In this document: one piece after another, positions 11,311-44,351 of the stretch | How the letters are laid out: the number at the start of each line of letters is the position of its first letter | How positions within the stretch are numbered: position 1 is the first letter of the stretch | DNA from: Candidatus Parcubacteria bacterium | GTDB lineage: Bacteria > Patescibacteriota > Minisyncoccia > Phycocordibacterales > EsbW-18 | Assembly: GCA_039798445.1 (NCBI GenBank) | Contig: JBDKFZ010000012.1 | Coordinates: 2,407-66,406 of the forward strand | Direction of reading: 5' to 3' | Length of the DNA stretch: 64,000 nt | Notes under the pieces: model-generated | Seen by the model: the letters and a program-made list of their open reading frames with translations, nothing else | Database searches by the model: none | Told to the model about the DNA's origin: nothing | Program-made: the position numbers and the translations under genes

Positions 11311-11314
11311 CAAA

Positions 11315-23443: not shown

Positions 23444-23577
23444 AGTGTAACGTGGTGGAGATGAGATTGGGGTAAAAGAAAACGGCGCAGACGAGCTTTC
23501 TCAATCCCGAGGGATCGATAGGCTGTCTGCGCCGCAAGGCGTCAATCAGTAGAGAGGGCGGGTCAGTTGTCGGCGGA

Positions 23578-24486
23578 CTACTCCTTGTTCTCGGCAGTCG
23601 TCACCGTGATCTTCGTGGCGCCGGCGCGGGCCACTGAGACCTGCTGACCGAGCGATGCGAGCCCACGCGACTCGTAGACCTTCATGGCGGTCATCATGTC
23701 GATGGCCAATCGGGTCTGATCCTCGGGGGTCGGCACGAAGGACAGGAAGTTCAGGCGGACACCCTTATCCTCGAGACGCTTGTTGACCTCCTCGAGGAGT
23801 CGATCTTCGAACTCGGCTTGCGAGAAGTCGATGATGTCCTCCTTGATGAGCAGGCCGGTAACGACGTCGCGCAAACGCTTGTCGATGACGGTGTTCTCCG
23901 CCGACTCGTAAGCGCTCGACGAGTTGCTCTGATCCTGAGCGTCGCTGTTCTCCTTGCCGAGGTACTTGGCCTCGCCGATGAACTTCATCGCGTCGAAGAT
24001 GATGTACTCGTAGGGAATCTCGACGCCAGCGATGACGCGGTCCTTGAAACTCGTTTTGAACCGCGTCTCACCCTGCATGGGGTAGTCCGGCACCGTGACC
24101 TTGTAGGAACACGGGCCAATCATCGCGGGGAGGACCTTCCCAGGCTGCACGAGCTCCCAATCAACACCGCAGTCGCTGGTGACCAGCGTCTGCACGTTGG
24201 CGTGAGAACGTGCGCATCCGGAGGTACCGATCCCGCAGAGCGCGAGAACTAGGCCGACGCCGAGACCCGCACTTCGGGAAGGAACCTCTGCCCGAAGAAT
24301 GGCGCGGATGAGCTGGTAGCCACCCCACACCAACACGATGGGCCAGACGGCACCGAACAGGATGGTGAGGTAGATCGGCGCCGAGACGTAGTACTGCCCG
24401 ACGAAGAACGTCTGGAACCAGGACATCAGCAGACCGAGATCCCCCAACACCACCAGCGCGATGCTCAACCCTTTGAGAAATTTCAT
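23578..24486 (-). CDS. hypothetical membrane protein (4 TM N-terminal, then soluble domain), GC-rich island of about 67% GC
   Basis: 302-aa ORF. GC is far above neighbours (a sampled 60-nt stretch gave 40 G+C). Several other frames are open in the same region, so the coding frame is a judgement call. Confidence 0.5.
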   Translation of the reverse strand: MKFLKGLSIALVVLGDLGLLMSWFQTFFVGQYYVSAPIYLTILFGAVWPIVLVWGGYQLIRAILRAEVPSRSAGLGVGLVLALCGIGTSGCARSHANVQTLVTSDCGVDWELVQPGKVLPAMIGPCSYKVTVPDYPMQGETRFKTSFKDRVIAGVEIPYEYIIFDAMKFIGEAKYLGKENSDAQDQSNSSSAYESAENTVIDKRLRDVVTGLLIKEDIIDFSQAEFEDRLLEEVNKRLEDKGVRLNFLSFVPTPEDQTRLAIDMMTAMKVYESRGLASLGQQVSVARAGATKITVTTAENKE

Positions 24487-24695
24487 GTCTTCTCTCCCTT
24501 TTTTGACGAAGAACTACTATCGAGCAACAGGCCTGTGAACACATGTCACAAGTCCTATTGTTCTGAAGGTATTATAGCAGTTATAAAACATAAGTCAAGG
24601 TTTACAGGAGTTTTAAAAGTTACATAAAACAAAACACCCCGCACATTTCTGTGCAAGGCATTTTGACTTGTCCTCCGAAGCTCGAGCGAAGAGGA

Positions 24696-25277
24696 TTAGT
24701 TGAGTGCGTAGAAGGCAAATCGGATACGGCTGGTGACAGGGTCAGCGACCGTGTGAGCAGGCTCAAGACCAACTGCCCATGACGGCGTGTTCATGACGGA
24801 GATTGGAGAATAGAAGTGCATCACGTCTGACGAAAGCGGGTTGAGGTCGGCGTCAGCGTAATAGACAGAACGTGCGATTGAAACGGCACTATCCCATGAA
24901 GGGCTCGAGTCCTGGTAGCTCATCGAGACGTTGATCGAGTACTGCTTGTCTGTCGCATGCATACCAGAAAACTGGCCACGGGCGAGGACAACGTCTTCGT
25001 ATGAATCACCGCCGTATGCGCCTGACTCGACGCGGTTACGGATGACCCACGCAACGAGTTCCTGCTCGCTGGCCTTCTTGGTCTCAGAATAGATCGTTCG
25101 GGCGAACCAGAGGATCTCATCATCAACCTTGGAGAAACCGAGGACACTAATCGATGCAGCTTCAGCATGGTTGCTCAAAAGCGTGATGTTCGATGTGAAC
25201 GCAAGGGCTCCGAGGAGGGCACAAACGGCCGTCTTTGCGAAAAGCCTATAAAGGTTCTTGATTTTTGTATTTTGCAT
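24696..25277 (-). CDS. cell-wall hydrolase, SleB/CwlJ-like (Hydrolase_2), secreted
   Basis: WFARTIYSETKKASEQELVAWVIRNRVESGAYGGDSYEDVVLARGQFSG. Likely start at the internal Met (MQNTKIKNLYRLFAKTAVCALLGALAFTS signal peptide); the exact start coordinate is uncertain by a few nt. Confidence 0.7.
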   Translation of the reverse strand: MQNTKIKNLYRLFAKTAVCALLGALAFTSNITLLSNHAEAASISVLGFSKVDDEILWFARTIYSETKKASEQELVAWVIRNRVESGAYGGDSYEDVVLARGQFSGMHATDKQYSINVSMSYQDSSPSWDSAVSIARSVYYADADLNPLSSDVMHFYSPISVMNTPSWAVGLEPAHTVADPVTSRIRFAFYALN

Positions 25278-25486
25278 AGTGCCTTCCTCAACGAAAAAAG
25301 CCGCCCCGGAGGACGGCTCTTTCCGAAAAGAAAGATGCCTTATTATAGCAGGGCTACTTTTTTTGTCAATAGCACCCCACAAGAAGCTATTTTGGTCAAG
25401 TCTTGCAACCACCAGACAGCCTAATGGAGCCGTTTTATGGCCATGTTATACTTATTTTGCTTATAAGCCCCCTAAGACTATCTTTT

Positions 25487-26092
25487 ATGACAGCTACCCC
25501 CTACTCAGCCCGCCAGTTCACCCTTCCGGAGGTTTCCGGTATCTCTCCCAAGACATTTGAGACCCATATCAAGCTCTACGAAGGCTATGTAAAACAGGCC
25601 AATGTCGTTTTGGGCAAGATCGAGGAGTATTCCAAGGATTCTGAGGCAAATGCCTATGCCTTGGGTGAGCTCCAGCGACGCTTTGCCTTCGAATTCGATG
25701 GTATGCGAAACCACGAATACTACTTTGGCGCTCTTGAGGGTGGTCCAAAAGCCCTCCCCACAGACAGTGCTCTCGCCCAAGCAATCACCGAAACTTGGGG
25801 CAGCGTTGATGCCTTCATGGCCCGATTCAAGGCTATCGCCCTTACCCGCGGCATCGGCTGGGCGATGCTCTACCATGATCCAACCGCCAAGCGTCTTTTG
25901 ACCCAGTGGGTCGACGAACAGCACTTGGGCCACCTCACCGGCCTTTCCCCTATCGTCACCTTGGACATGTGGGAACACTCATATCTTTTGGATTACGCTC
26001 CTGCCGACAAGGCTAAATACGCTGCAGCATATCTCGATGCTCTCAACTGGGAGACGGTAGCTCAGTGGTACGAGGAAGCTTCGGCACAATAA
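25487..26092 (+). CDS. superoxide dismutase, Fe/Mn family
   Basis: DMWEHSYLLDY motif, FEFDGMRNHEYYF, GWAMLY. The ATG giving MTATPYSARQF is at 25487; the ORF track begins at an upstream TTG. Confidence 0.9.
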   Translation: MTATPYSARQFTLPEVSGISPKTFETHIKLYEGYVKQANVVLGKIEEYSKDSEANAYALGELQRRFAFEFDGMRNHEYYFGALEGGPKALPTDSALAQAITETWGSVDAFMARFKAIALTRGIGWAMLYHDPTAKRLLTQWVDEQHLGHLTGLSPIVTLDMWEHSYLLDYAPADKAKYAAAYLDALNWETVAQWYEEASAQ

Positions 26093-26201
26093 GTGGTCAC
26101 ACTTTCGCTGCGTGGTCCGTGTTTTGTCCTCGCAAGCTCGGAAAAACCCGGATCCACTTCGCTCTGCGCCATACATTTGGAGTTTTCTAATTGCCAATTG
26201 C
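26093..26201 (+). repeat. ~110-bp repeat element A1 (inverted copy A2 at 39437..39548)
   Basis: The reverse complement of 26093..26201 aligns to 39437..39548 with about 88% identity, including a shared terminal motif gcaattggcaatt. Fills the convergent sod / comEC intergenic region and abuts the comEC stop codon. Confidence 0.85.
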
Positions 26202-27641
26202 TTATTGCTTCTTACTGAATAGTACCCAGCATCCGATTACCACATACAGACCAACAAGCACCCACACGGACATCACTCCCACATCCACCAACATCGACGG
26301 AAAGCTGTCAGCGATTTTGACGATCCAAAAGACGTACGCACCCACTGCTTCGATGAGAATTGAAAATGGTAGAGCGACGAACGCGCCGAAGAATCCTGCA
26401 ACGCCTGCCGCCAATGAACCAATCATAAAAAGCGGCATCGTTGGGAGCACCACGAGATTTGCCGGGAGTGTGAGGAGATTCGTCATTCCCGATTGATATA
26501 AGAGGATAGGAGTCACGGCGGTCTGCGCGCCGAGCGTCGTTCCGAGCGTCTCGCGCAATCCGCCCGTCTCGGGAACCCACGTCAGATGTTTGGCATACAG
26601 CGGCGCGATAGAAACAAGCCCCCATGTGGCCAAGAAAGAGAGTTGGAACGATGGATCGTACAGAAGGATATATGGAACATGAAAAATCATGAGGCACCCC
26701 GCCAACATGAGCGAACGGGTCACGTTGTAGCGCCGCTTCACCACGCGCGCGAGCACAGTGAGCCCGGCCATAATGCCCGCACGGATAGCCGTTGATGAGG
26801 CTCCGGCGATCATGATGTAAACCACAATGCCGACAATGCTCCCCAACGAGCCGACAACTGTTGAAAAGGAGCTGAACATAGTGCGGACAAAGTCTCCCGC
26901 CATGGTGATGTTGTAGCCCGAGACCACGATGATGTGGATCAACCCCGCGATGCGGAATGCCTCCTCGTCATCTTGAGACAAAGCACCTTCAACACCAAGC
27001 ACAACACCCGAAGCTAACCCCGCCGAAGGTTCTGATACGCTTCGCTCGATGCTCTCAACGAACGAATGTTTTACTTTGATAAAGAACGCGCGGATTGGAT
27101 TTCCTTGGTCAGCTTCAATAAGCGTCGCGCTCCCCCGCTTGATCACATGGAATATCCCCTTTCGAGCCAAGAAGCTCGGATAATCGAACGTGCGTCCCAA
27201 ATCGGTTTCGAATGCTTCAGGTAATTCGAGCTTTCCTTCGACCATCACTTTGTCGCCATAGGAGAATATTGGATATGACGGAACAGAAACCGAGATGTCT
27301 TCCCTCCCCACATCAACCAGTATCTTCTGCCCTTTCGGACTCATCTGCGGGTCATCGCTGATGATGCCCTCGAGCGTTATTGACTCGCCGATGCGTTCTA
27401 TCACCATCGGATCGCCTGCAAAAAGCCGCGAATGGTACGAGCGGGCGATGCCAAGTCCAAAGCACATGAGAAATATCGCGATGCAGACGAGCGCTCTTTT
27501 CTCTGACCTGAACATCAAAATGGATGCGATGCCGACAAGCACGGCCTCGGCGCCATATTCCCAACCCACATCCCAAAGAAACTGAAGCGCTACACCCCCA
27601 AGGAATCCCCAGAATCCTGCATGAACAAAAGCAGAGCGCAT
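26202..27641 (-). CDS. comEC: competence protein ComEC/Rec2 membrane channel (N-terminal OB-like domain plus competence domain, no MBL domain)
   Basis: About 480 aa with many TM helices: LIHIIVVSGYNITMAG, FQLSFLATWGLVS. The ATG (MRSAFVHAGFWGFLGG) is at 27641; the ORF-track start 27689 is a TTG inside repeat B2. Confidence 0.8.
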   Translation of the reverse strand: MRSAFVHAGFWGFLGGVALQFLWDVGWEYGAEAVLVGIASILMFRSEKRALVCIAIFLMCFGLGIARSYHSRLFAGDPMVIERIGESITLEGIISDDPQMSPKGQKILVDVGREDISVSVPSYPIFSYGDKVMVEGKLELPEAFETDLGRTFDYPSFLARKGIFHVIKRGSATLIEADQGNPIRAFFIKVKHSFVESIERSVSEPSAGLASGVVLGVEGALSQDDEEAFRIAGLIHIIVVSGYNITMAGDFVRTMFSSFSTVVGSLGSIVGIVVYIMIAGASSTAIRAGIMAGLTVLARVVKRRYNVTRSLMLAGCLMIFHVPYILLYDPSFQLSFLATWGLVSIAPLYAKHLTWVPETGGLRETLGTTLGAQTAVTPILLYQSGMTNLLTLPANLVVLPTMPLFMIGSLAAGVAGFFGAFVALPFSILIEAVGAYVFWIVKIADSFPSMLVDVGVMSVWVLVGLYVVIGCWVLFSKKQ

Positions 27642-27680
27642 GGCATGACCATACGCTCTGACCCATGAAAAGAATTTAAA

Positions 27681-27789
27681 GCGAAGCAACCTGTCCCTCC
27701 AAGGAGCCTACGGAGCGCGACTGGCGCGAGTCGAGCGGCGAGCTAGCAAGCGAGACCGCGTGCTCCTTGGAGGGAGCAGGGAGCGGAGC
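27681..27789 (+). repeat. GC-rich ~110-bp palindromic repeat element, copy B2 (copy B1 at 1359..1467)
   Basis: Near-identical to B1. Lies between the mscL stop and the comEC start. Confidence 0.8.
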
Positions 27790-27790
27790 T

Positions 27791-28084
27791 TTACCCTTCC
27801 TTCTTCATATCCAACCTATCAAGCTTGAGGCCTTTGAAACCAAAGTAGATGACGGCTGCGATGATGAGGAAGTCGATAATCGATGCCACGAAGCTTCCGA
27901 GCAATACCGGTCCAATCATCATGTCCGCAAGTCCGCCGATGTTACCAAACAGCATTCCGATGAGAGGATTGATGACGTCAGTGACGAACGATGTAACGAC
28001 TTTTGATACTGCACCACCGAGGATAAAACCAATTGCCAATCCGATGACTCCCTGCTCTCTCACGAATTGTATGAATCCTGTCAT
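27791..28084 (-). CDS. mscL: large-conductance mechanosensitive channel
   Basis: MTGFIQFVREQGVIGLAIGFILGGAVSKVVTSFVTDVINPLIG... Confidence 0.9.
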   Translation of the reverse strand: MTGFIQFVREQGVIGLAIGFILGGAVSKVVTSFVTDVINPLIGMLFGNIGGLADMMIGPVLLGSFVASIIDFLIIAAVIYFGFKGLKLDRLDMKKEG

Positions 28085-28088
28085 AAAA

Positions 28089-28511
28089 TTATTTATTTAA
28101 ATGTTCATCCATCGCCTCGTTCGCAAGCTCATCGGCCGCACCATTCTCCTCACGCATCACATGAACGAATGAGATGCTTGGGAACTTGGCGATGAGCGTG
28201 CCAACTTTGGCAAATTGGAGTTTGAGTCCAGCGTCTTTTACTTTGTATTCTTTTCGAAGCTGTTTGATTACGAGCTCGCTGTCCATGCGGACTTCAACAT
28301 GATTCTCCTTTCTCCCCTCTTGTGGAGCAAGGGTGTCCAACTCGCCAAGCGCGCGGATGAGCGCTTCGTACTCGGCCTGATTGTTGGTTGTCTCACCGAT
28401 GTACGCTTTGCCCGTCTTGATGACAGCGCCATCCTGCTGAATAACAAAACCGATGCCCGACGGCCCCGGATTACCTCTCGCTCCCCCGTCTGTGTTTACG
28501 ATAAATTTCAT
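28089..28511 (-). CDS. rnhA: ribonuclease HI
   Basis: MKFIVNTDGGARGNPGPSGIGFVI...AEYEALIRAL...VHVMREENGAADELAN. ATG at 28511; the ORF track extends upstream to 28661 through GC-rich DNA. Confidence 0.85.
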   Translation of the reverse strand: MKFIVNTDGGARGNPGPSGIGFVIQQDGAVIKTGKAYIGETTNNQAEYEALIRALGELDTLAPQEGRKENHVEVRMDSELVIKQLRKEYKVKDAGLKLQFAKVGTLIAKFPSISFVHVMREENGAADELANEAMDEHLNK

Positions 28512-28519
28512 GTGCCATG

Positions 28520-28530
28520 AGTATACCAAA
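28520..28530 (-). promoter_or_regulatory. extended -10 box TGGTATACT about 8 nt upstream of the rnhA ATG (possible leaderless transcript)
   Basis: Minus strand reads tttGGTATACTcatggcacATG. Confidence 0.35.
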
Positions 28531-28578
28531 CGAAACCCGCCCGCCAGCCTCAAGTTGAGGGTGGCGGGACGGTGGGGT

Positions 28579-28881
28579 TCACGCGTGAAGCATGAATGTG
28601 TCGGTGGAGATCGACTTCTCCGGCGAAACGTAGTGGTACTGGGACTGCTTGAGCTTCCCACGTTTCACCAGCCGACTGAGCGCAGAATTGACTTCGAACG
28701 CTCTGATGAAATACGGCTTGTGCTCGAGCTCGTCGGGCCAGGAAGAGAACTTGACCCTCCGGACGATGCTGCGCCGATGGGTTCGCGAATCCTCGGCGGG
28801 CAAGTCACGAGGGGCGACGTCCATGACCAGGATCTCGACAGCCTTCCGTCGCTTCTCCAACCAGCGCTTGATGAAGTTCAT
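28579..28881 (-). CDS. hypothetical small basic protein (100 aa) in a GC-rich island
   Basis: ORF in roughly 60% GC DNA between rnhA and recJ. A 14-bp GC palindrome (cccgccagcctcaa g ttgagggtggcggg) lies just downstream. No domain recognised. Confidence 0.35.
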   Translation of the reverse strand: MNFIKRWLEKRRKAVEILVMDVAPRDLPAEDSRTHRRSIVRRVKFSSWPDELEHKPYFIRAFEVNSALSRLVKRGKLKQSQYHYVSPEKSISTDTFMLHA

Positions 28882-28938
28882 TGAAACCTCCGGAACAGGT
28901 GCCGACCATTCGGCGATTCTAGATATTGTATACGCCTT

Positions 28939-30591
28939 CTACGACAAAATATCAACGATACGCAATCTGATGCCTCGACGCTTTCCGAATGCATCTTCTT
29001 CGATATGTGCGAGAAGCGAGACCGTCTCCCCCGCTCTTACGCCCTTGAGCTTCTCCTCAGAAAAGAATTGGATCGCAGAAACAGCGCCATTATCACCCAA
29101 CGTAAGACGTGTGTGCTGTTTTTCTTTACCAAAAGGCTCTGCACCTGATACCAAACAATCTTTGAAAAGGAAGACCGGCTTCTTGTTGCCTGCACCAAAC
29201 GGTGCCATGCGCTGTACATCCATGTGCATCGTGTAATTCACATCAGAGAGTGCGAGTTCGGCATCGTGTTCAGGTATTTCTTCTTGTGCTATCGCAACAG
29301 CACGACCAAGCGCTTCGGAAAGCGATTCTTCGAGACGGACGATGTGCTGGACCGTCGTTGAAAATCCGCCCGAGTGTTTATGTCCGCCGTACTCAACAAA
29401 ACATTCTTTGGCTTCTGTCATGAGGAGCATGATGTCGACACCACCACCCGAACGACATGAGCCTTTGATCATTGTTGATTCGCCTTGGCCCCACACGAAT
29501 GCGGGGCGATTGTATGTTTCGGCGACCTTGGTGGCAGCGAGACCGAGCAGACCAGGACGCCAGTGTGTATTGCCGACGACGACCACTGACGGGATCTCTT
29601 CGCGCGAAGCGAGCATCGCATTAATTTCTTTTGTCATCGATGCAACAGCGCCTTTGCGGCTGTTGTTGACGCCCTCGAGATGTTCGGCAAGTAGGTCTGC
29701 TTCTTGCATCGTTGTTGCAGCAAGGAGTCGGAACGCGGCCTCGGGCTCGTCCATGCGCGATGCAGCGTTGATGCGCGGCGTGATGGTGAAAACCACATCA
29801 TCATCGGTGAGATATCGCTGACGGATTCGAGCACGATCACACAGTGCACGAATACCCGGACGCGGAGATTTGCGCAGCACCATGAGGCCGTAATGCGCGA
29901 GTGCGCGATTCTCACCAGTGAGCGCAACCATGTCGGAGAGCGTTGCAATGCCGACCATATCCAAAAGCCATTTTTCCCATCCAAATGGAATGTCGGCGAC
30001 GCGCGGGTCATTGTCGAAACGAAGCTGTGCGATCACCGCTTGGACGACTTTGTATGCAACACCGGCTCCACACAAAGATTTATTCGGATATTCATCTCCG
30101 ATCTTATTGGGATTCACGACGATACATTTTGGTGCGCCCTCCTCCCCCTCTTGGTGATGATCGATGACGATGACATCGATGCCTGCAGCCATGGCGCGAT
30201 CGATGCGAGTCGCGTCGCCCATTCCACAGTCAATAGTAATGAGAAGTTTCACGCCGTTGTCGATGCATTCGTCGACGACACGCTCGTTGAGACCGAATCC
30301 TTCGGTGTTGCGGTGTGGAATCGAGATGGAAAAATCCTTCGCTCCGAGCTTCGTGAGTGCGTCGTTCATCAAAACAGCTGAGGGGATTCCATCAGCGTCG
30401 AAATCGGTGAAGACTTTGATTTTCTCCCCTTCCCTCAGCGCTGTGATAATGCGCTCGACCACCTTGTCCATGTCAGACAAGAGCATCGGATCAAGGACAT
30501 GCTTTGCATAGTCAGGAAAAAGGAAGGTCTCGATGTCTTCCTCGGTGGTTATGCCCCGCAAAGCAAGGAGTTTTTTGAGCAGTTCGGTCAT
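28939..30591 (-). CDS. recJ: single-stranded-DNA-specific exonuclease RecJ
   Basis: DHH motifs DFDADGI, VIVIDHH, GGHKHSGGF. ATG (MTELLKKLLALRGI) at 30591. Confidence 0.9.
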   Translation of the reverse strand: MTELLKKLLALRGITTEEDIETFLFPDYAKHVLDPMLLSDMDKVVERIITALREGEKIKVFTDFDADGIPSAVLMNDALTKLGAKDFSISIPHRNTEGFGLNERVVDECIDNGVKLLITIDCGMGDATRIDRAMAAGIDVIVIDHHQEGEEGAPKCIVVNPNKIGDEYPNKSLCGAGVAYKVVQAVIAQLRFDNDPRVADIPFGWEKWLLDMVGIATLSDMVALTGENRALAHYGLMVLRKSPRPGIRALCDRARIRQRYLTDDDVVFTITPRINAASRMDEPEAAFRLLAATTMQEADLLAEHLEGVNNSRKGAVASMTKEINAMLASREEIPSVVVVGNTHWRPGLLGLAATKVAETYNRPAFVWGQGESTMIKGSCRSGGGVDIMLLMTEAKECFVEYGGHKHSGGFSTTVQHIVRLEESLSEALGRAVAIAQEEIPEHDAELALSDVNYTMHMDVQRMAPFGAGNKKPVFLFKDCLVSGAEPFGKEKQHTRLTLGDNGAVSAIQFFSEEKLKGVRAGETVSLLAHIEEDAFGKRRGIRLRIVDILS

Positions 30592-30620
30592 TGGGGTAGC
30601 GATACTATATACTATCAGCC

Positions 30621-31016
30621 ATGAATGACTGTATCTTCTGCAAAATAGCCTCAAAAGAGATCCCTGTTGACCTCGTCTATGAAGATGAACGTATTATCGC
30701 TTTTCTTGATATGAAGCCGATAAACCCCGGCCACACCCTCATTGTTCCCCGGGAGCACGTCGACCACTTCTTCGATATGTCATTACCTGTCTACCAGCAC
30801 GTATTTGATATGGCAAAAAAGATTGCTCCCAAACTAAAGGATGCCATGGGCTCAGCCCGAATAGGGGTTCTCATAGAAGGTCTTGATGTCCCACACGCCC
30901 ACGTGCATCTTATTCCGATAAATGGTGGAAGGGAGATAGACCACGAGCGGGCACGGATGGCCACACCCGAGGAGTTGAAAGAGACGACAGAGAAAATCAA
31001 ATCCGCTCTCCTATAA
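30621..31016 (+). CDS. HIT-family (histidine triad) protein
   Basis: CIFCKI..., VPHAHVHLIP histidine triad. Confidence 0.9.
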   Translation: MNDCIFCKIASKEIPVDLVYEDERIIAFLDMKPINPGHTLIVPREHVDHFFDMSLPVYQHVFDMAKKIAPKLKDAMGSARIGVLIEGLDVPHAHVHLIPINGGREIDHERARMATPEELKETTEKIKSALL

Positions 31017-31022
31017 AAACTA

Positions 31023-31052
31023 CGCCCCGCACGAATGTGCGGGGTTTGCTTC
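31023..31052 (+). terminator. rho-independent terminator after the HIT gene
   Basis: ccccgcacgaatgtgcgggg followed by tttgctt. Confidence 0.75.
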
Positions 31053-31068
31053 AGGGGAGCTGCGGAAA

Positions 31069-31407: not shown

Positions 31408-31448
31408 CTCCTTTCCGAGGTATTTCTAACACACCCATTGGTCAAACA

Positions 31449-32552: not shown

Positions 32553-32554
32553 AC

Positions 32555-33322: not shown

Positions 33323-33512
33323 ATAAAGAAAAGAGATGTCCCAATTGTAGCATGTGGCAACTTTCAACTTATTCCTTTTAAAATAAGGCTGGAGTGACTT
33401 TTAAGGGATGAAAAAACCTCGCATCCGCCGGTATGGCGAAGCGAGGCTCCCATCGAGACACCGATGGATGTGTTGGGCGGTATGCCCTCTGCAGACAGAG
33501 AACGTTTGGGCT

Positions 33513-34187
33513 TTAGAAGTGAGGGTCCATGTTGACCGGCAGGGTCCCGACGAAGCGCCACTCCTCTCCCCAAGATTCAGGGGAGCGACCCATATGAACG
33601 TACCAGTCATCCTTGTGGCAACAGCCGGCGAGGAAGCAGAAAACGCCCCCAACCTGCCACTGCGTGGCGTAATGTCGACCATCCCGGAAGAGAGGCTGGG
33701 ACGAAAATGCCTCCGCCAGGGCACGAGGATCGGGCGTGAGGCGGTTGGCACCATAAAGCTCGGCCACCTGAAGGGAACTGATGCGACCCTCCTGATAGTA
33801 CCCCGAGCTCGGCTCGATGATGCCGAGATCAACTTCTTCACCAAGACCCGTCGGAACGGCTTGGAGAACCTCGGGGTCGATGTGCTGGTGTCCCCCGATG
33901 GACTCGATGACTTCCCACGGAGCGAGACCACGATTGACCTGGATGTGCGATACGGTGGTGATGTCGCCACCCTCCACGTGCTTACGGACCACTGCCAGAA
34001 GCTCCGGAGTCAGGAGATCGGGTTGATGGTTCATAGCGTCCCGCAGTAAATCTGCGGGGAACCGCTCCGCCCGAACTGCAAGGTCAAGCCTTTCGAAGAG
34101 CTTCGCGATTTGAAAGCCACTTGCAATTTGAATACTCGGGGTCATCATCGTTCTCCTTTTGAGTGCTGTACCCAATATGGGATTCAT
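33513..34187 (-). CDS. hypothetical protein (224 aa) in a GC-rich island of about 58% GC
   Basis: Three long ORFs overlap here in different frames. The minus-strand frame has GC3-rich codons and a normal amino-acid composition, while the plus-strand ORF is Arg-rich like an antisense artifact. Confidence 0.45.
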   Translation of the reverse strand: MNPILGTALKRRTMMTPSIQIASGFQIAKLFERLDLAVRAERFPADLLRDAMNHQPDLLTPELLAVVRKHVEGGDITTVSHIQVNRGLAPWEVIESIGGHQHIDPEVLQAVPTGLGEEVDLGIIEPSSGYYQEGRISSLQVAELYGANRLTPDPRALAEAFSSQPLFRDGRHYATQWQVGGVFCFLAGCCHKDDWYVHMGRSPESWGEEWRFVGTLPVNMDPHF

Positions 34188-34293
34188 AGCTTCACCAGAA
34201 TGGTGAGTTGCTACTACGTAGTGCTCTTAAGATACATCCGCGTGCACTATGACAATTCTAGATGAATCTGTCAACAGATGATTTGATTCCCTC

Positions 34294-35709: not shown

Positions 35710-36314
35710 AGATTGATTTTAAGGTTACGAATTGCAGCGCTCGAACGGAGCACATATTCGTTCGGCAACGTCTCAGGGTTCACATTGACGACGAGACTCA
35801 CCTTCACAAAGACCGCAGGAGTAACGTTCGTATACGACGTGAGTTCTGCACCCGCACTATTAAAGTATTCAAAAATGGGAACGTTCTGCTCGACATTGCG
35901 CACATTCTCCGAAACAACACTCACTATCCCATTCGCCTCATTGTAGACTGCAGGCGAACCAACAGGATTAGTGATGCTTTTCATAAACGATGTCCCGTCG
36001 AGATAGAAGCGAACAAGCTCGGCATCGTTATCCCTATCAAGGTCAGTATAGATTGCAACAGTTGTCGATCCGATTGTAATGATGGGATAGGCACCCGTCT
36101 CCGAATACCGCGCTTCGCGGATATCGCGAACCATCTGCTCGACACCACGACGTGCATTCTCGACTGCGATTGCTTGCTCCATCGCATATCTATTTCCGCG
36201 GTACAACATGACAATCGAGCTCACAACCGCCGTGCTGATAATCATGAAGATAGCGAGCGTGGTAATCGCCTCAATAAGCGTGAAGCCTCGACGATTGTTC
36301 GTTGTGAAATACAT
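35706..36314 (-). CDS. type IV prepilin-like protein (minor pilin / pseudopilin)
   Basis: Class III signal MYFTTNNRRG|FTLIEAITTLAIFMIISTAVV, with the conserved Gly, Phe+1 and Glu+5. Confidence 0.85.
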   Translation of the reverse strand: MYFTTNNRRGFTLIEAITTLAIFMIISTAVVSSIVMLYRGNRYAMEQAIAVENARRGVEQMVRDIREARYSETGAYPIITIGSTTVAIYTDLDRDNDAELVRFYLDGTSFMKSITNPVGSPAVYNEANGIVSVVSENVRNVEQNVPIFEYFNSAGAELTSYTNVTPAVFVKVSLVVNVNPETLPNEYVLRSSAAIRNLKINL

Positions 36315-36317
36315 ATT

Positions 36318-38141
36318 CTAAGGATTGAGGAGGACCGAATACGTTGTTGCTCCCGAAACCGAGAGCCCCGTGATGTTTTGTGTCGTAAATCCACTTGCCG
36401 ATACATCCAATGTGTATGAAGTTGCAGATAGACCACGGAAGAACGACTGTCCACATGCCGATGAGTCTATGGTTTCATCATACCCCGTTCTACTGAGACG
36501 CACTGATGCGTTTTCGAGCGGGACATTCTGGTCATTCGTGACATACACAAGAAGCGAGTGCGCAGTCGCAGGTGCAAAGATGAAATCAACAATCTGTGAG
36601 ATTGCTGGATTGAGCCCAAATGGCTGGAACGGACAAGCCTCAACAACCGAAAGGCTGCTTTCAGCGGATCCTTTGGTGATGAGGTAGGTGTCCCACTCGA
36701 CGTCTTCAATCGCAAGCGTTCCATCAACTCCGGTAGTGTGTGAATCGGTATATTTGTAGATAGGTGCACCTCCACCATCGGTGCCGATTGTCTTTGCTCC
36801 CTGCATCGTAAAGGTGGTTGTTGGACGTGGAATCGGACCCTCATCATAGGTAATCGTCCACGAACGAAGCGTTGGCGTAACCCATGGGTCACTGCTCTGC
36901 ACATCGCCGACCAGCGCAAGACTGGGATACTCAATAACCGACAAACCAGAAAGATCGACCGGTGATGAACTGAATCCCGAAGAATTGCCGGGAAGATCGC
37001 TGTCAGAAACCAGCACTGATGACGTCGCCGTTGTAGCGAGTAGCGAAACACGCACAGTCGTGCTTGCCATGGCAATCGCATCAAATGCCAACTCATGCCA
37101 TGTATTCAGATATACAGGAGCAACCGATGTGGCAGTCACAGAACCAGTAGAAAAATATGTTCCTGGGGCTCCCGCGAGCGTCACCTCCCCTCCCGACACA
37201 ACAACATCCTCTGCCTCCGCAACCAACGATGAATCAGCAAATGAGTCTGTCCACGTTGCGGAACGAGTCTCGTCAAATGAACGCAATGTGATGTCAGAAA
37301 GCTCGTCGATACGGAACGTTGAAGATGTGATGGTGTCCCCAATAACAGTGAGCGTCCCGGGCATAGGGTTCGGATTCGACGGCGAGGCCAGATAGGTGCG
37401 GTCTGTGCTGTGTCCGGCTTTCGTCGTTTCAATCTGATACGCAGTCGATGTTGGTGCACCAGGAAAATAAGCGACGCCGTCATTGCTCGAAAACGTGGAG
37501 ATGCTGATGTTCGGCGACACGACGGTATTCGTTATTGTTATCTCCGCATTGGATACCGGTGCACCTCCGGCATCAACAACATTCACCACAAGTGTTCCTC
37601 CCCCATCCAAAGTCTCAATGCCTTTTGGAACGACGTTAGTTATGAGCGACACATCGCGGTCGGTGCCACGGAATTGCCATGAGACGCTTACCTTGGCGAT
37701 TTTAAAATCTGCCTGAATCCCATTGGTATCAGAGGGCCCTGTACCGTCCGCAGCATGATCGATGAACTGAACAAATGTACGACGCGTGTAAACAATATTA
37801 TTGAGAGAAATGCTTTCTTCGGGTGGAATAGAACCTGCGGGAATGCCACCCAACACCGCGACGCTGTTGTACGGGAGACTTCGTATATATTCAATCTGTT
37901 CATTGGCGAGCGCAATCGCACCAGTCTTTGCCTTTCCCAATCCCACTGACACCACCGCAAGCCGGATGACACCAAAAAGACCGATGAAAATGAGCAACAT
38001 GAGCGCCGTACCGACCACTGCATCAATCAGAGTAGCCCCGCGCTGGGGCGTAGAAGCACGAAATCCGAATCTCGAAATCCGAAACAAATTCAAAGCTCGA
38101 AATCCTAAATCCAAAACAGGTTGTAAGTTCGTTTTGAACAT
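36318..38141 (-). CDS. large pilin-like protein (607 aa) with prepilin-type N-terminus and a Thr/Ser-rich ectodomain; candidate tip adhesin or major subunit
   Basis: ...QRG|ATLIDAVVGTALMLLIFIGLFGVI prepilin-like segment. The annotated ATG (38141) lies in the loop of a large palindromic repeat cluster, so the true start is uncertain. Confidence 0.65.
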   Translation of the reverse strand: MFKTNLQPVLDLGFRALNLFRISRFGFRASTPQRGATLIDAVVGTALMLLIFIGLFGVIRLAVVSVGLGKAKTGAIALANEQIEYIRSLPYNSVAVLGGIPAGSIPPEESISLNNIVYTRRTFVQFIDHAADGTGPSDTNGIQADFKIAKVSVSWQFRGTDRDVSLITNVVPKGIETLDGGGTLVVNVVDAGGAPVSNAEITITNTVVSPNISISTFSSNDGVAYFPGAPTSTAYQIETTKAGHSTDRTYLASPSNPNPMPGTLTVIGDTITSSTFRIDELSDITLRSFDETRSATWTDSFADSSLVAEAEDVVVSGGEVTLAGAPGTYFSTGSVTATSVAPVYLNTWHELAFDAIAMASTTVRVSLLATTATSSVLVSDSDLPGNSSGFSSSPVDLSGLSVIEYPSLALVGDVQSSDPWVTPTLRSWTITYDEGPIPRPTTTFTMQGAKTIGTDGGGAPIYKYTDSHTTGVDGTLAIEDVEWDTYLITKGSAESSLSVVEACPFQPFGLNPAISQIVDFIFAPATAHSLLVYVTNDQNVPLENASVRLSRTGYDETIDSSACGQSFFRGLSATSYTLDVSASGFTTQNITGLSVSGATTYSVLLNP

Positions 38142-38200
38142 TTGGATTTAGGGTTTAGTGCTTCTTTCGGATTTCGTGCTTCGTGCTTCGGATTTCATCC
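38037..38200. repeat. palindromic repeat cluster (direct and inverted copies of cgaaatccgaa, tandem cgtgctt x2) spanning the pilin start and the pilC stop
   Basis: gaagcacgaaatccgaatctcgaaatccgaaac ... ttggatttagggtttagtgcttctttcggatttcgtgcttcgtgcttcggatttc. Two ~55-nt arms, imperfectly complementary, around a ~26-nt loop that contains the pilin ATG. Confidence 0.7.
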
Positions 38201-38201
38201 C

Positions 38202-39410
38202 CTAGATACCGCTTGAGAGCGAATAAATCGGCGTAATCATGGAGACGGCAAAGAACCCGACCGCAGCACCAATGATGACCATGAGGAATGGTTCGATGAT
38301 CGTCGACATATCTTTTGTCTTCTGATCGACCTCACTCTCGAAGAAGACCGCAATTTGGAGAAGCATCGCCGGGAGCTTTCCAGTCTCTTCACCCACCGCT
38401 ATCATCTCGTTCACCATCGGTGGAAAGAGGCGCTCGTAGCGTGAAAAAACGGCTGAGACCGCTGCACCTTTCTGGATTTCTTGTTCGGCCTCAACAAATG
38501 CTTCTTTGTAATACGAGTTCTGGAGGACATCCCCCGTGATCGATATCGCAGCAACCATGTCGACTCCTGATGAAAGAAGTGACGAGAACGTGCGCGACAT
38601 ACGTGCCGCATTGGTTTCTTTAACCAAGTTGCCGATGATTGGCATGCGGAGCATGACGAACTCGAATCCCCGTTTGCCCCTGCGCGTACGCGAAAGCATG
38701 ATGGCCCCAACGACAAGAAGGATAAGCCCTGCGATAACCGCAATCGGATTTGCAGTGAGCAAATCACTCGATGAGATAACGAGCTGTGTCGTTGCGGGAA
38801 GTTTGACGTTGAGTTCAACGAACGTCGCAGTGAGCGTCGGAACGACGAACATAAGCATGAGGATACCAATGATAATCATCACCGAAAGGATGATGATTGG
38901 ATACATCATCGCGCCACGTATCTTCCGGCGCAGTGCGTAACTGCGATCCATTTGTTCGGCGACGATACGGAGCGAGTCACCGAGCTTACCAGATTCTTCA
39001 CCAGCACGGACCATCGATACAAAGAGCGGCGAGAAAGTCTCTGGAAACTTGGCAAGGGCTTCTGAAAGCGCCGAACCTTTTTCGACATATGCGCTCAGGG
39101 CAACGAGAATCTTCTTGAATTTCTTGCTCTTCGTCTGACGCTCCATAACGGTGAGCGCGCGAGAGAGTGCAAGGCCCGCGTCGACCATCGCCCCAAGGTT
39201 CTTGGCAAAAGTGATCTTGTCGGCGAGCTTTACACCACCAAATGAGATATTGAAACGCGAACCCACGCTTTCCTTATTAGACTCTTCAGCAGTGATGAGC
39301 GTCTTCCCTTCTGTTTTGAGATCGCGCGCAAGCGCGAATTGATCATCCGCTTCGCGGATCCCCTCTTCAACTTCGCCGCTTGATGCGACTGATTTATACG
39401 AGAACTTCAT
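38202..39410 (-). CDS. pilC: type IV pilus assembly platform protein PilC (GspF family, two T2SSF repeats)
   Basis: Three TM segments, duplicated F-domain signatures. ATG MKFSYKSVASSG at 39410; the ORF track starts at 39464. Confidence 0.9.
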   Translation of the reverse strand: MKFSYKSVASSGEVEEGIREADDQFALARDLKTEGKTLITAEESNKESVGSRFNISFGGVKLADKITFAKNLGAMVDAGLALSRALTVMERQTKSKKFKKILVALSAYVEKGSALSEALAKFPETFSPLFVSMVRAGEESGKLGDSLRIVAEQMDRSYALRRKIRGAMMYPIIILSVMIIIGILMLMFVVPTLTATFVELNVKLPATTQLVISSSDLLTANPIAVIAGLILLVVGAIMLSRTRRGKRGFEFVMLRMPIIGNLVKETNAARMSRTFSSLLSSGVDMVAAISITGDVLQNSYYKEAFVEAEQEIQKGAAVSAVFSRYERLFPPMVNEMIAVGEETGKLPAMLLQIAVFFESEVDQKTKDMSTIIEPFLMVIIGAAVGFFAVSMITPIYSLSSGI

Positions 39411-39436
39411 TACGAAAATTGTAGCACGAGAAGCTA

Positions 39437-39548
39437 TTAGCAATTGGCAATTAAAAAACTCCAAATGTATGGCGCAGAGCGGAGTGGATCCGGGTTTTTC
39501 CGAGCCTGCGAGGACAAAACGCGGACCACGCAGCGAAGGTCATACCGC
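39437..39548 (-). repeat. repeat element A2 (inverted copy of A1) in the pilB-pilC intergenic region
   Basis: Aligns to the reverse complement of 26093..26201. Begins with gcaattggcaatt and ends near ggaccacgcagcgaagg. Confidence 0.85.
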
Positions 39549-39555
39549 GAGGTCC

Positions 39556-41310
39556 TTATTCCGTAACCACACGCAATACCTCTTCGAGCGTTGTGATGCC
39601 TTGTGCTGCTTTGAACACGCCGTCTTCGAGCATCGTCATCATGCCTTCGCTCTTTCCCTGTGCTTCGATAGCATCTCCAGTCGCACCTTTCATAATGAGC
39701 TCTTTGATCGTTGGTGTGATGCGCAACACTTCGTGAATACCAATGCGCCCCTTGTACCCATCTTCAACATCAGAACCTCCCTTTGGGCGATAGAAAGTGA
39801 CATCATCCCATTTCGCTCCCGTCTTGATGATCTTTTCAGACACGAGAAAACCGAGCATGCGGTCGAGATCGACACTCTTCCCGAGCGTCGCAAGCTCCGC
39901 TTTTGAAAGCGTGTATTCTTCTTTCTTCTCTTTTGCGAGAACGCGCACAAGTCGCTGACCGATTATCACCTTGATCGTCGAGACCAAGAGGAAGGGTTCA
40001 ACGCTCATGTCGAGCATACGAGGAATGGCACCAGAAGCCGAGTTCGTGTGAAGCGTCGAGAGCACCAAGTGACCAGTGAGCGATGCGTTCACCGCGAGTG
40101 ATGCGGTCTCGGTGTCACGAATTTCACCCACCATGATGATGTCTGGGTCTTGGCGGACGAGCGAACGAAGACCATTGCCGAACGTCATCCCAATCTCGGG
40201 CTTCACCTGTGTCTGATTGATGCGTGGCATCTGATACTCAACCGGATCTTCAATGGTCGAGATGTTAACGTCCGGCGTGTTGAGGATATCGAGCACGGTG
40301 TAGAGCGTTGTTGTTTTACCCGAACCAGTTGGTCCTGTCGTGAGAATCATTCCTGTCGACTGTTTCGTCGCCCAGTGAATCGCCTCGAGGCCTTCGCCAT
40401 GAAAACCAAGTGATTCCAGTGTGTATCCTCCCCCACCTTCACGAAGCACACGCATAACGGTTTTCTCACCGTAGTATGTCGGCAATGTCGACACACGGAA
40501 GCTCACTTTCTCACCGTCGAGATCAATCTTGAATCGACCGTCTTGTGGTAAGCGCTTCTCATCAAGCTTGAGGCTCGAAAGCACTTTGATGCGCGCAACA
40601 ATGCCCGGCGCCGCCTGCTTGGGCAATGTCATCGCGTCGTGCAACAGACCGTCGATACGATAACGGACCAAAAGCTCGCGCTCCATCGGTTCGATGTGAA
40701 TGTCAGATGCACCTTGGACAACGGCGTGTTTGATAAGCGTGTCGACGATGCGGACAATCGGGAGATCCTCGGCCATCTTCTTGAGATCCTCACTCGACGC
40801 TTCGGAGCCATCACCTTCGGTAATTGCAACAAGCGATGCCGCCTCGGTGCTAATAATATCGCCGAATTCTGCCTTGAGGCTCTTTTGATATTGAAGAAGG
40901 GCACGCTTCACCGACTCGGCATCAGTAAGTCGCGGAAGGATCGAAAGACCAGTCTTCTTTTTGACGAAGTCGATTGCCTGCAAGTCGCCAACATCGAGCA
41001 TCGCGACTTCAAGGCCGTGCGAACTCTTGCCGTAGGCGACGATATTGTGCGTGCGAGCGATCGGTTCAGGGATGAGCGAGAGGACCGCGAACTCAACCTT
41101 CTGCTCTTTGAGATCGACGAATGGAATACCGATGACGTGTGCCTTGGCACGACGGACATCGTCTTCGGACAGCGCACCTTCGGAAACGAGCGCTTCTTCG
41201 AGCGTTGTGTCGTTTTTCTCCGCAGCTTTCTCGATATCAGCGAGCTTCGCTTCGGTTACGAGGCGTGCATCGATGAGAAATTGTTTGAACTGTTCGGTAT
41301 CAACGCGCAT
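39556..41310 (-). CDS. pilB: type IV pilus assembly ATPase PilB (GspE family)
   Basis: Walker A GPTGSGKTTT, Asp box, His box, and N-terminal GSPII-like domain. ATG MRVDTEQFKQF at 41310. Confidence 0.9.
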   Translation of the reverse strand: MRVDTEQFKQFLIDARLVTEAKLADIEKAAEKNDTTLEEALVSEGALSEDDVRRAKAHVIGIPFVDLKEQKVEFAVLSLIPEPIARTHNIVAYGKSSHGLEVAMLDVGDLQAIDFVKKKTGLSILPRLTDAESVKRALLQYQKSLKAEFGDIISTEAASLVAITEGDGSEASSEDLKKMAEDLPIVRIVDTLIKHAVVQGASDIHIEPMERELLVRYRIDGLLHDAMTLPKQAAPGIVARIKVLSSLKLDEKRLPQDGRFKIDLDGEKVSFRVSTLPTYYGEKTVMRVLREGGGGYTLESLGFHGEGLEAIHWATKQSTGMILTTGPTGSGKTTTLYTVLDILNTPDVNISTIEDPVEYQMPRINQTQVKPEIGMTFGNGLRSLVRQDPDIIMVGEIRDTETASLAVNASLTGHLVLSTLHTNSASGAIPRMLDMSVEPFLLVSTIKVIIGQRLVRVLAKEKKEEYTLSKAELATLGKSVDLDRMLGFLVSEKIIKTGAKWDDVTFYRPKGGSDVEDGYKGRIGIHEVLRITPTIKELIMKGATGDAIEAQGKSEGMMTMLEDGVFKAAQGITTLEEVLRVVTE

Positions 41311-41376
41311 ATCTTTGCGCTTTATTGTATCAGTTCTACAAAAAAGAGAACGTGAATAAAAACGAGATATGAAAAA

Positions 41377-41406
41377 GGCCTGTGCACCGTAGTGGTACAC
41401 AGAGCC
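41377..41406 (-). terminator. rho-independent terminator after the GC-rich hypothetical gene, upstream of pilB
   Basis: ggcctgtgcacc-gtagt-ggtacacagagcc followed by tttttcat on the minus strand. Confidence 0.55.
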
Positions 41407-41494
41407 TCCATCGTACAACCGATGGTGTGTTGGGCAGTAGTGCCCGAAACAAAGCGAGAACGTTCACGCGGGATGCAAGGGTCGGAGCCTCGTA

Positions 41495-41995
41495 CTACTC
41501 CGCGAGCACGCCGATCACCTCGTAGTCCAGGGACCAGCGGTGGCTGGGGTGTGCGTACCGAGCGCTCATCCGGCACACACCGGCAGCGGTCTTTCTGATC
41601 GTGAGCATCTGCGGTGCGTCATGTCTGTCGGGAATCGTCGGCATGACCACAGACGCGCAGTCCTCGCGATCGTCGCCAACGAGGGCTTCCTGTCCATGCG
41701 GGGCCGTTTCCGGCGGACAAATCGCCCGCCACCGTTCGAACATCTTCAGCAGTTCCGTCGTGGTCGGCCGCTCGGTGAAACCGAAGTCCTTGACCTGACA
41801 CCTTCCGAAAGTGACGAAACGCTTTGGCCCGGGGACGTACTGTCGGCTGCAGAGGACCTCCCTTGTGGTACGGTCGAGACGAACCCCCTTTGCTTCGAGA
41901 CGCGTGATGTGGTCAACGGGGTCAACCCCGCCGATTCTGAGCGTCATCCAGAAGACCAGCGGGTTCGCTACGTGTTGCGGTGCGGCGGTGCTCAT
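41495..41995 (-). CDS. hypothetical protein (166 aa) in a GC-rich island of about 60% GC
   Basis: ATG MSTAAPQHV at 41995 with AAGGAG 7 nt upstream. The plus-strand 351-aa ORF over the same DNA is antisense of this gene and of the neighbouring one, and is rejected. Confidence 0.5.
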   Translation of the reverse strand: MSTAAPQHVANPLVFWMTLRIGGVDPVDHITRLEAKGVRLDRTTREVLCSRQYVPGPKRFVTFGRCQVKDFGFTERPTTTELLKMFERWRAICPPETAPHGQEALVGDDREDCASVVMPTIPDRHDAPQMLTIRKTAAGVCRMSARYAHPSHRWSLDYEVIGVLAE

Positions 41996-42169
41996 GTGGC
42001 AATCTCCTTTTCCTACAGCGATAAAGTGGGTGGAATTCTCTACACGAGAATCACAGTCCACAGGGTACTTCTGTCAGCACAATGCTTTCTTGAAGCCCTT
42101 TTGTCAATCATTGTGATAAAAAAGAAAACCCGCCTCTTTCGAAGCGGGTTTCCCTATTCATCATCCTGT

Positions 42170-43036: not shown

Positions 43037-43098
43037 ACAATAAATACTAAGTGATAATGGTAAGTTCGTTACCGCCCATTATATACCCCTGTGGATGT

Positions 43099-43131: not shown

Positions 43132-43149
43132 AGGACCCCGACCATATAT

Positions 43150-44344: not shown

Positions 44345-44351
44345 ACACTAC

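Follow-up and report, generated by a model that had tools for sequence, protein, structure and literature searches.

In a stretch of 64,000 nucleotides from a Candidatus Parcubacteria bacterium (assembly GCA_039798445.1, contig JBDKFZ010000012.1, positions 2,407 to 66,406 of the forward strand; the whole of this stretch is called the window hereafter), five GC-rich open reading frames (ORFs) of the minus strand lie in the interval 23578-42000, and we refer to them as the islands ISL1 to ISL5. Our preferred reading, to which we give about an even chance, is that the five islands are real accessory genes, which occupy variable slots of a syntenic Paceibacterota/Parcubacteria backbone and have recently spread through a recombining population. 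The parts are of known kinds, namely a prophage-type lipoprotein module, a lectin-fold protein of a diversity-generating retroelement (DGR) family that stands without a retroelement, and slot ORFans; what is new here is the near-invariance of the islands between diverged strains together with the variable slots in relatives. The region is notable because single-gene slots and near-zero diversity coincide here with a GC excess that recurs in homologues. The islands are listed below with their GC fraction and, where relevant, the GC fraction at first, second and third codon positions (GC1, GC2 and GC3).

23578-24486, minus strand: ISL1, GC 0.603, GC3 0.828
28579-28881, minus strand: ISL2, GC 0.578, GC3 0.802, GC2 0.396
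31069-31398, minus strand: ISL3, GC 0.585, GC1 0.664, GC2 0.500, GC3 0.591
33513-34187 (longest ORF), minus strand: ISL4, GC 0.579, GC3 0.649
41495-41995, minus strand: ISL5, GC 0.629, GC3 0.760

Near-identity between strains and variable slots in relatives

For the comparison between strains, we used contigs from other metagenome assemblies that carry the same region at ~94-95% identity. On these contigs the flanking genes differ by 5-8%, with a proportion of synonymous differences (pS) of 0.19-0.38 and a ratio of nonsynonymous to synonymous proportions (pN/pS) of 0.04-0.18. ISL1 shows 0 differences in 909 nt in three contigs (L002-L004) of a ~95% identical strain, the nearest differences being at 23450 and 24519, with 86-119 differences elsewhere on these contigs of 1.9-2.4 kb; about 50 synonymous differences would be expected in ISL1 alone. 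On contig L006, both ISL2 (0/303) and ISL4 (0/675) are identical to the window and ISL3 has a single difference (1/339), which is nonsynonymous, while ISL5 differs at one position out of 501 between strains. The tracts of identity around the islands are as follows.

23451..24518: identical tract, ISL1
28570-28883: identical tract, ISL2, on L006
30545..31464: near-identical tract, ISL3, with one difference; takes in the RecJ 3' end, HIT, ISL3 and the PGK 3' end
33391..34289: identical tract, ISL4, on L006; one end is just upstream of TIM, the other at the preceding gene's stop codon
41437..42008: near-identical tract, ISL5, with one difference and dense differences on both sides

The ISL2 and ISL5 tracts stop 2-58 bases from the ORF ends. 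A joint permutation on L006 gave p = 6e-4, and a gene-level Fisher test (five of five islands against one of 14 other genes) gave p = 5e-4. In a third strain (L092), ISL4 carries three synonymous differences, so that the identity seen elsewhere reflects recency and not constraint at the nucleotide level. The same contig joins an upstream sequence of the type found in another contig, L091, to an ISL4 body of the window type, with the breakpoint inside the ISL4 5' end, and this hybrid is direct evidence of recombination at the ISL4 slot. Contigs of other strains were also collected for the homologues carried by L089, L192 and L177; these proved to come from identical strains and were uninformative.

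Compared with window positions 27828-40187, L006 is a mosaic in which identical tracts of 120-900 bp alternate with stretches at 10-23 differences per 100 bp. One identical tract of 728 bp falls within PilC (38209-38936), and HIT, a gene that is not GC-rich, is identical throughout (0/396 differences). Such a pattern points to two deeply diverged lineages that recombine very frequently.

More distant genomes show what else the slots may hold. PGK scans of genome and metagenome collections found no genome closer than ~50% identity, and the two nearest genomes with full synteny to the window backbone are L008 and L093, in which the gene order PilB-PilC-607aa-pilin-like-471aa, TIM-PGK, HIT-RecJ and RNaseH-MscL-ComEC is kept. 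The comparison covers four of the five gaps (ISL2 to ISL5), the ISL1 slot lying outside those contigs. L008 has a 211-aa ORF in the ISL4 slot, a 136-aa ORF in the ISL3 slot and two ORFs of 222 and 195 aa in the ISL2 slot, all of ordinary GC and none with detectable similarity to the islands; L093 has AT-rich ORFs of 141 and 71 aa in its gaps, and its ISL4 and ISL5 slots are empty (33 bp and ~261 bp, respectively). The presence or absence of the islands in relatives, a check proposed with the original prediction, thus returned unrelated ORFs or nothing in these gaps and, judged from gene order, ISL2 to ISL5 are accessory genes in variable slots of a conserved arrangement.

Flexible genomic islets and gene-specific sweeps are known from marine Vibrio and from freshwater populations. 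The islands resemble them by their local loss of diversity against a diverse mosaic core and by a slot content that varies between syntenic flanks (L008, L093). They differ in being single genes of 0.3-0.9 kb, five of them within 20 kb, and in having low-diversity tracts that for ISL2 and ISL5 stop only tens of bases from the gene ends.

A classical genomic island or integrative element was considered and rejected, as integrase and flanking repeats are lacking and the sole tRNA of the window, a tRNA-Ile, lies at 1724-1797. No direct repeats of at least 10 nt bracket any island and there are no att-like sites; a Pfam scan of neighbouring genes showed no recombinase, and the precomputed Pfam annotations list no mobility gene.

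Base composition and coding status of the islands

The original prediction had placed at least five GC-rich single-gene islands of 58-67% GC, with GC and GC3 above every flanking gene, in a background of 45-50%. The coordinates and strand of the five ORFs are correct and each frame is open. Each island exceeds in GC (z 2.6-4.5) all of the 35 other window genes, whose mean is 0.505 (sd 0.027, maximum 0.557). For GC3, where the local mean is 0.57, only ISL1, ISL2 and ISL5 are clear outliers (z 2.9-3.8): ISL4 is marginal, its value of 0.649 being under that of L28 (0.663), and ISL3 is within the normal range and owes its excess, which is in GC1 and GC2, to its amino-acid composition. The claim therefore stands for GC in all five islands and fails for GC3 in ISL3 and ISL4. 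Taken whole, the islands have 57.8-62.9% GC, with 63.7% in the top 300-bp window, and the background was measured at 50.1% for the window and 51.6% for local genes; the GC observation is real, yet it was overstated. The location of all five on the minus strand is true and is nothing special, because nearly all local genes are on that strand.

Codon usage confirms that the islands are atypical. In the pooled island codons, CGG, GGG and CTG reach 0.24, 0.26 and 0.28, compared with 0.00, 0.04 and 0.01 in native highly expressed genes, and the pooled usage correlates better with a Paceibacterota contig of 60% GC (r 0.87) than with the window background (r 0.72); 19 of 19 background genes match the window background better than that contig. 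The codon usage of the islands is that of a genome of ~60% GC. Translational selection as the cause of the high GC3 is ruled out, since the islands use the very codons that native highly expressed genes avoid.

The amino-acid usage, which had been described as actinobacterial in style, is not so: Ala (8.0%) and Gly (7.7%) show no increase over the background (Ala 9.1-9.6%, Gly 8.1-9.5%), Lys is at 4.1%, and the increases are confined to Arg, Pro, Trp and Cys. The compositional shift affects GC3 alone in the conserved ISL1, and GC1 and GC2 as well in the freer ISL3 to ISL5. An adenine-specific depletion, which could have been a DGR footprint, was rejected, A and T being equally depleted.

All five islands have a Shine-Dalgarno sequence, and a promoter-like or terminator-like site is present in addition at four of the five. 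Shine-Dalgarno sequences and terminators of their own had been predicted for several of the islands, and the AAGGAG before 41995 and the hairpins of ISL3 and ISL5 are indeed present. The signals found are the following, all on the minus strand.

24571..24598, minus strand: promoter-like site of ISL1, TTGACT, 16-nt spacer, TG-TATAAT, 11/12 matches (consensus match only)
24665-24630, minus strand: hairpin closing the gene before ISL1, upstream of the ISL1 promoter-like site
ATG at 28881, minus strand: ISL2 Shine-Dalgarno, GGAGG 7 nt before the ATG
ATG at 31398, minus strand: ISL3 Shine-Dalgarno, AAGGAGGTGA before the ATG
31025..31044, minus strand: terminator-like hairpin and T-run directly 3' of ISL3
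ATG at 34148, minus strand: ISL4 Shine-Dalgarno, AAGGAG and then ATGATG
34246..34274, minus strand: promoter-like site of ISL4, TTGACA, 17-nt spacer, CATAGT (consensus match only)
ATG at 41995, minus strand: ISL5 Shine-Dalgarno, AAGGAG 8 nt before the ATG
41379..41403, minus strand: terminator-like hairpin downstream of ISL5
42155-42122, minus strand: end hairpin of the SIMPL gene itself, upstream of ISL5

The likely true starts are ATG 31398 for ISL3, the GTG at 31407 being a mechanical ORF start only, and ATG 34148 for ISL4. Codon-position periodicity is strong, with GC3 minus GC2 equal to 0.43 in ISL1 and 0.41 in ISL2, and Rfam gave no match inside any island at E<=1. All five islands look like real protein genes, and their description as compositionally atypical, non-housekeeping genes, accessory or mobile in character, is supported; their independent transcription is predicted from these signals.

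Protein families of the islands and their surroundings

The original prediction saw no recognisable domains in the products. This is true of the profile libraries (Pfam, NCBIfam, PHROGs and PADLOC), in which only weak matches of ISL1 were found, but ISL1 and ISL5 both belong to sizeable protein families.

ISL1 is a protein of 302 aa in which an N-terminal membrane segment of two helices is fused to an SPFH-like lipoprotein. Its family counts more than 200 proteins of 48-75% identity, with a mean column identity of 54%, and named relatives come from Patescibacteria, Moraniibacteriota, Parcubacteria and Pedobacter. The ISL1 match to Band_7 (PF01145) scores 19.9 bits (E=8.5e-4), under the gathering cut-off of 23.6, and 11 of the 36 relatives match the same family at E<=0.01 (best 9.9e-6); there is also a weak match to PHROG 200, 'lipoprotein' (E 4e-4), and none of the family to PDB sequences. 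A lipobox-like cysteine, Cys91, is invariant in 36 sequences and comes after a hydrophobic stretch ending in S/G/A; as two extra N-terminal helices precede it in ISL1, lipoprotein processing is uncertain.

In a prophage of Pedobacter sp. HDW13, the two parts of ISL1 are separate adjacent ORFs (~60% identity) immediately upstream of the terminase genes, with portal and capsid genes also in the neighbourhood, and 12 IMG/VR viral contigs bear ISL1 relatives. ISL1 of the window is solitary and has no phage genes near it: one neighbour encodes a metallo-beta-lactamase-fold (ComEC-related) protein, the other a cell-wall hydrolase. From these relatives, ISL1 is probably a membrane-anchored SPFH-like lipoprotein module of a kind otherwise seen in prophages. 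It shares with the 'moron'-type lipoprotein modules of prophages, PHROG 200 and the SPFH-Band 7 proteins the proximity of its relatives to a prophage terminase and their presence on IMG/VR contigs, its weak PHROG 200 and Band_7 matches and the invariant lipobox-like Cys; it differs from them in standing alone, in having both parts in one ORF and in its Band_7 score below the cut-off. We know of no ISL1-family member with a tested function.

A split ISL1-like pair, a 72-aa membrane ORF and a 235-aa lipoprotein, was also observed on the Patescibacteria contig L177, within a three-gene cassette of 1.8 kb between direct repeats of 108 bp (5553-5660 and 7463-7570, 98% identical), which resembles an insertion with duplicated ends. 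Other GC-rich single genes occur near ISL1 homologues, such as an inositol-phosphatase-family gene of L088 (12084-12878, GC 0.53 vs 0.41) and a gene for a 219-aa protein of L089 (15583-16242, GC 0.54 vs 0.46), and GC-rich single-gene islets may be common in such genomes, which are like those of the Candidate Phyla Radiation (CPR).

ISL5 (166 aa), predicted to have a C-type-lectin fold, belongs to a CPR family that counts DGR targets among its members and has 112 representatives at E<1e-3. The only folds matched by its model (mean pLDDT confidence score 94.6) are of the C-type-lectin and FGE types, with TvpA and Mtd among the matches; a BFVD fold search returned nothing significant, the family had no match among PDB sequences, and ISL5 had none among phage, plasmid and viral contigs. 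The domain is compact (~150 aa) and has no match to any Pfam family. Named relatives are Paceibacterota and Ryanbacteria, with one homologue on a phage contig. On the CPR-like contig L195, a complete DGR (7001-9478) has as its target an ISL5-family homologue ~33% identical to ISL5, and all 25 mismatches between its variable repeat (VR) and template repeat (TR) are at TR adenines, 16 of them A-to-G. Its components on L195 are listed here.

7451-7586: VR, 136 nt
7928-8063: TR
8070-8432, minus strand: Avd
8591-9478: reverse transcriptase (RT)

On the 60%-GC Paceibacterota contig L192, the homologue has a 39-nt downstream repeat (8493-8531 and 8962-9000), the seven mismatches of which are all adenines in the downstream copy, as in a TR; the contig breaks off before any RT comes into view. 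The window contains no second copy (TR) of ISL5 in its 64 kb, and the window ORFs scanned gave no RVT or Avd match. The region of ISL5 equivalent to the VR is invariant; over its 501 nt ISL5 has a single difference, a synonymous one, when strains are compared, and there is no hypervariability. ISL5 resembles the variable proteins of DGRs, such as Mtd of Bordetella phage and TvpA of Treponema denticola, in its predicted fold and in its homologues on L195 (TR/VR, Avd, RT) and L192 (TR-like repeat), and is unlike them in its lack of TR, Avd and RT in the window, its invariant VR equivalent and its compact domain outside Pfam families. The modelled fold suggests a ligand-binding C-type-lectin-fold protein, present in the window as a fixed copy without a retroelement in cis.

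ISL5 follows a block of genes that is arranged as below.

42170..45817, minus strand: block before ISL5, with DsbB 45263-45817, YceI 44504-45232 and SIMPL 42170-43036 (Pfam)
inside the DsbB-SIMPL block, opposite strand: a gene for an extracytoplasmic function (ECF) sigma factor and an unknown gene

The three other islands are slot ORFans. ISL2 is a basic protein of 100 aa, called as a gene in the JGI record and without match in Pfam, NCBIfam, PHROGs, PADLOC, plasmids or viral contigs; ISL3, of 109 aa, has no relatives in phage, plasmid, viral-contig, local-locus or PDB sequence searches. Both are small proteins without an assigned role. ISL4 has ~211 aa when read from ATG 34148 (33513..34148), and a search of 5.8e9 clusters returned as its only relatives P0126 (99%) and P0129 (42%), both from the same slot; PDB sequences, phages, plasmids and viral contigs gave no match. 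The 42% allele, on L091, is likewise GC-rich (0.573) and lies between the same flanks, and the ISL4 frame is open across it, with Trp, Cys, Gly and Pro residues conserved. An AlphaFold2 (AF2) model of ISL4 from the alignment of three sequences has a pLDDT of 37 and is unusable. Relationship of ISL4 to the ISL5 family or to the ORF in the L008 slot was rejected for lack of similarity. Seen through its two alleles, ISL4 would be a rapidly diverging, species-restricted protein with allele classes.

Elsewhere, the window encodes ribosomal proteins, EF-G, ComEC, superoxide dismutase (SOD), MscL, RNase H, RecJ, HIT, PGK and TIM, together with a type IV pilus cluster, SIMPL, YceI and DsbB. Its tRNA-Ile lies between the 23S and 5S (1552-1659) rRNA genes. 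The 23S rRNA match (2112-5475) has 3364 nt for a model of 2925 nt, hence an insertion of ~440 nt, in keeping with the rRNA insertions or introns often found in CPR bacteria. At 8193-18000 and 46638-60310 lie seven very large ORFs (679-1808 aa), full of internal repeats of ~130-160 and 300 nt that resemble those of the beta-propeller type; the GC3 of these ORFs is markedly low (0.34-0.44), a deviation opposite to that of the islands. Two intergenic repeats were also noted. A GC-rich repeat of 117-119 nt has copies at 1349-1467, in the gap between the 5S rRNA and a gene for a 264-aa protein, and at 27673-27789, in the gap between MscL and ComEC (from gene end to next start); these are 95% identical and form on the minus strand a long hairpin of -50 and -57 kcal/mol (z -3.4 and -4.7), which could be an element resembling repetitive extragenic palindromes (REP) or miniature inverted-repeat transposable elements (MITE), or a shared regulatory hairpin. 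An inverted repeat of 112 nt, 94% identical between its copies, is found after SOD (26101-26212, plus strand) and between PilB and PilC (39429-39540, minus strand); its predicted fold does not surpass that of shuffled sequence.

Origin of the islands and rival explanations

Under the preferred reading of recently spread accessory genes, each island allele would have entered or arisen recently and would then have passed among the diverged genomes of the population by homologous recombination, with an outcome resembling a gene-specific sweep. Natural transformation is a conceivable route because ComEC and type IV pilus genes are encoded in the same region. The source gene pool would be CPR- and phage-like and not actinobacterial and, taken together, the islands may be cell-surface or conflict genes under recurrent selection.

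Several observations weigh against this reading. About 38% of the 12.4-kb L006 alignment is identical, including the GC-normal HIT gene and part of PilC, so that a single island in such a tract is unremarkable (p 0.03-0.17 by chance). The contigs were fetched by exact-protein look-up, which biases the queried ISL1, ISL4 and ISL5 against nonsynonymous change, although it spares synonymous sites as well as ISL2 and ISL3 on L006. The flanks of the islands show no insertion scars, repeats or integrase, and for ISL4, whose family was seen in this slot only, no donor is visible. On L192 the order DsbB-YceI-SIMPL-ISL5 homologue is the same as in the window, with amino-acid identities of 40, 51, 58 and 42%, respectively, so that ISL5 has diverged in step with its neighbours and looks vertically inherited. 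A single recent import from a GC-rich donor would also leave unexplained the relatives with elevated GC in other genomes. ISL5 homologues are ~6-11 GC points above their flanks in four genomes with a base GC of 39%-60%: 0.72 vs ~0.60 on L192, 0.46 vs ~0.40 on L194, and 0.53 vs ~0.46 for the L195 target, whose own RT and Avd are at 0.41. Similarly, ISL1-clade genes are 12-15 GC points above their flanks in three genomes, and the ~300-aa clade members of L088 and L089 have a GC3 of 0.67 and 0.79 where the flanks have ~0.3-0.5.

With these relatives of ISL1 and ISL5 in view, the cause of the GC excess is left between readings. The first rival, rather unlikely in our estimation though it has to be taken seriously, is that the GC excess is intrinsic and long-lived and that the slots are recombination hot spots, where alleles are repeatedly replaced and homogenised between strains under GC-biased heteroduplex repair or a family-specific pressure, for example one linked to DGRs. 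The elevated ISL1 and ISL5 relatives speak for it, especially the target of an active DGR whose RT and Avd are not GC-rich, as does the recombination breakpoint inside the ISL4 5' end; moreover both divergent ISL4 alleles are GC-rich in a family known only here, which makes a local GC-raising process a live rival. A shift of GC3 alone in the conserved ISL1, extended to GC1 and GC2 in ISL3 to ISL5, is what directional pressure would be expected to give. Yet outside the islands local GC shows no correlation with strain divergence (Spearman 0.08, p 0.39), the identical tracts of HIT and PilC are not GC-rich, nor are the slot occupants of L008 and L093, and the ~235-aa ISL1 relatives of phages and L177 have no elevated GC. 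Effects of recombination on GC3 reported in bacteria are also of a few points and not of 20-25.

More tentatively still, GC elevation could be a heritable trait of certain fast-evolving CPR accessory families, including the DGR-targeted compact C-type-lectin family, and be coupled to near-zero population diversity; the slots would then be hot spots of recombination and sweeps, in which GC-biased conversion or a retroelement-targeting process lifts single genes by 6-15 GC points in genomes of any base composition.

It is improbable that the near-identity between strains is an artefact, in which assemblers stitched the islands of an abundant strain into other contigs or the look-up picked identical copies. 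Every comparison contig was assembled from short metagenome reads, the look-up used three of the five islands as keys, and one run (SRR11088468) gives an ISL1 contig like the window and an ISL5 contig of divergent type. The pattern is nevertheless repeated in independent assemblies, from three NCBI metagenomes and three Logan runs, with contigs that differ from the window; L006 is unbroken over 12.4 kb with ~15 identical tracts, as expected with one dominant haplotype; ISL2 and ISL3, which were not look-up keys, are still identical or nearly so on L006; the look-up cannot remove the synonymous differences expected in ISL1; and the 90% cluster of ISL1 consists of a single sequence variant.

The original prediction proposed the islands as candidates for transfer from a high-GC host, such as the Actinobacteria on which Saccharibacteria live, and we now hold recent transfers of this kind into an episymbiont to be very improbable. 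Their accessory or mobile character and atypical composition stand, and a composition and codon usage typical of a ~60% GC genome, as well as the DNA-uptake machinery (ComEC, type IV pilus genes), would suit such an origin; the small CPR-type genome with DNA-uptake genes and atypical single genes is indeed reminiscent of host-to-episymbiont transfer in Saccharibacteria. The actinobacterial donor is the part that fails. Broad searches (5.8 billion clusters or 1.84 billion representatives), made for ISL1, ISL4 and ISL5, found no actinobacterial relative of these three, where best matches to Actinobacteria had been anticipated: the relatives are CPR lineages, Pedobacter and phages, and for ISL4 the same slot only. 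The searches for ISL2 and ISL3 were in phages, plasmids, viral contigs and local loci, all negative, and for these two a host origin is conceivable. The amino-acid usage is not actinobacterial either, and the nearest named genomes are Parcubacteria/Paceibacterota and one 'Saccharibacteria' metagenome-assembled genome, without a known host. The host-transfer model is thus largely refuted for ISL1, ISL4 and ISL5. The opposite case, of homologues that are widespread and vertically inherited in related low-GC genomes, is borne out in part: ISL1 and ISL5 have widely distributed homologues in other CPR genomes, including low-GC ones, and ISL5 keeps its place after SIMPL in L192.

That the islands are GC-rich non-coding DNA or structured RNA, in which few stop codons give spurious ORFs, is so improbable as to be negligible: several long alternative ORFs do overlap ISL2, ISL4 and ISL5 on both strands, ISL2 to ISL4 lack domain matches and the ISL4 AF2 model is poor, but ISL1 and ISL2 have codon periodicity, ribosome-binding sites are at proper spacing, ISL1 and ISL5 belong to protein families, the latter with a confident fold, the ISL4 frame is open in the 42% allele, and Rfam finds nothing.

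The analysis corrects a tempting inference, as GC-rich genes in an episymbiont need not derive from a GC-rich host. If islands of this kind are indeed accessory genes spread by recombination, a reduced CPR genome would stay adaptable by means of a rigid housekeeping backbone with a few fixed gaps, where one surface or conflict gene is exchanged for another and the newcomer afterwards spreads, probably through DNA uptake, across a diverged population. If the GC elevation of their relatives is general, such genes would offer a test of GC-biased processes in bacteria at the scale of single genes.

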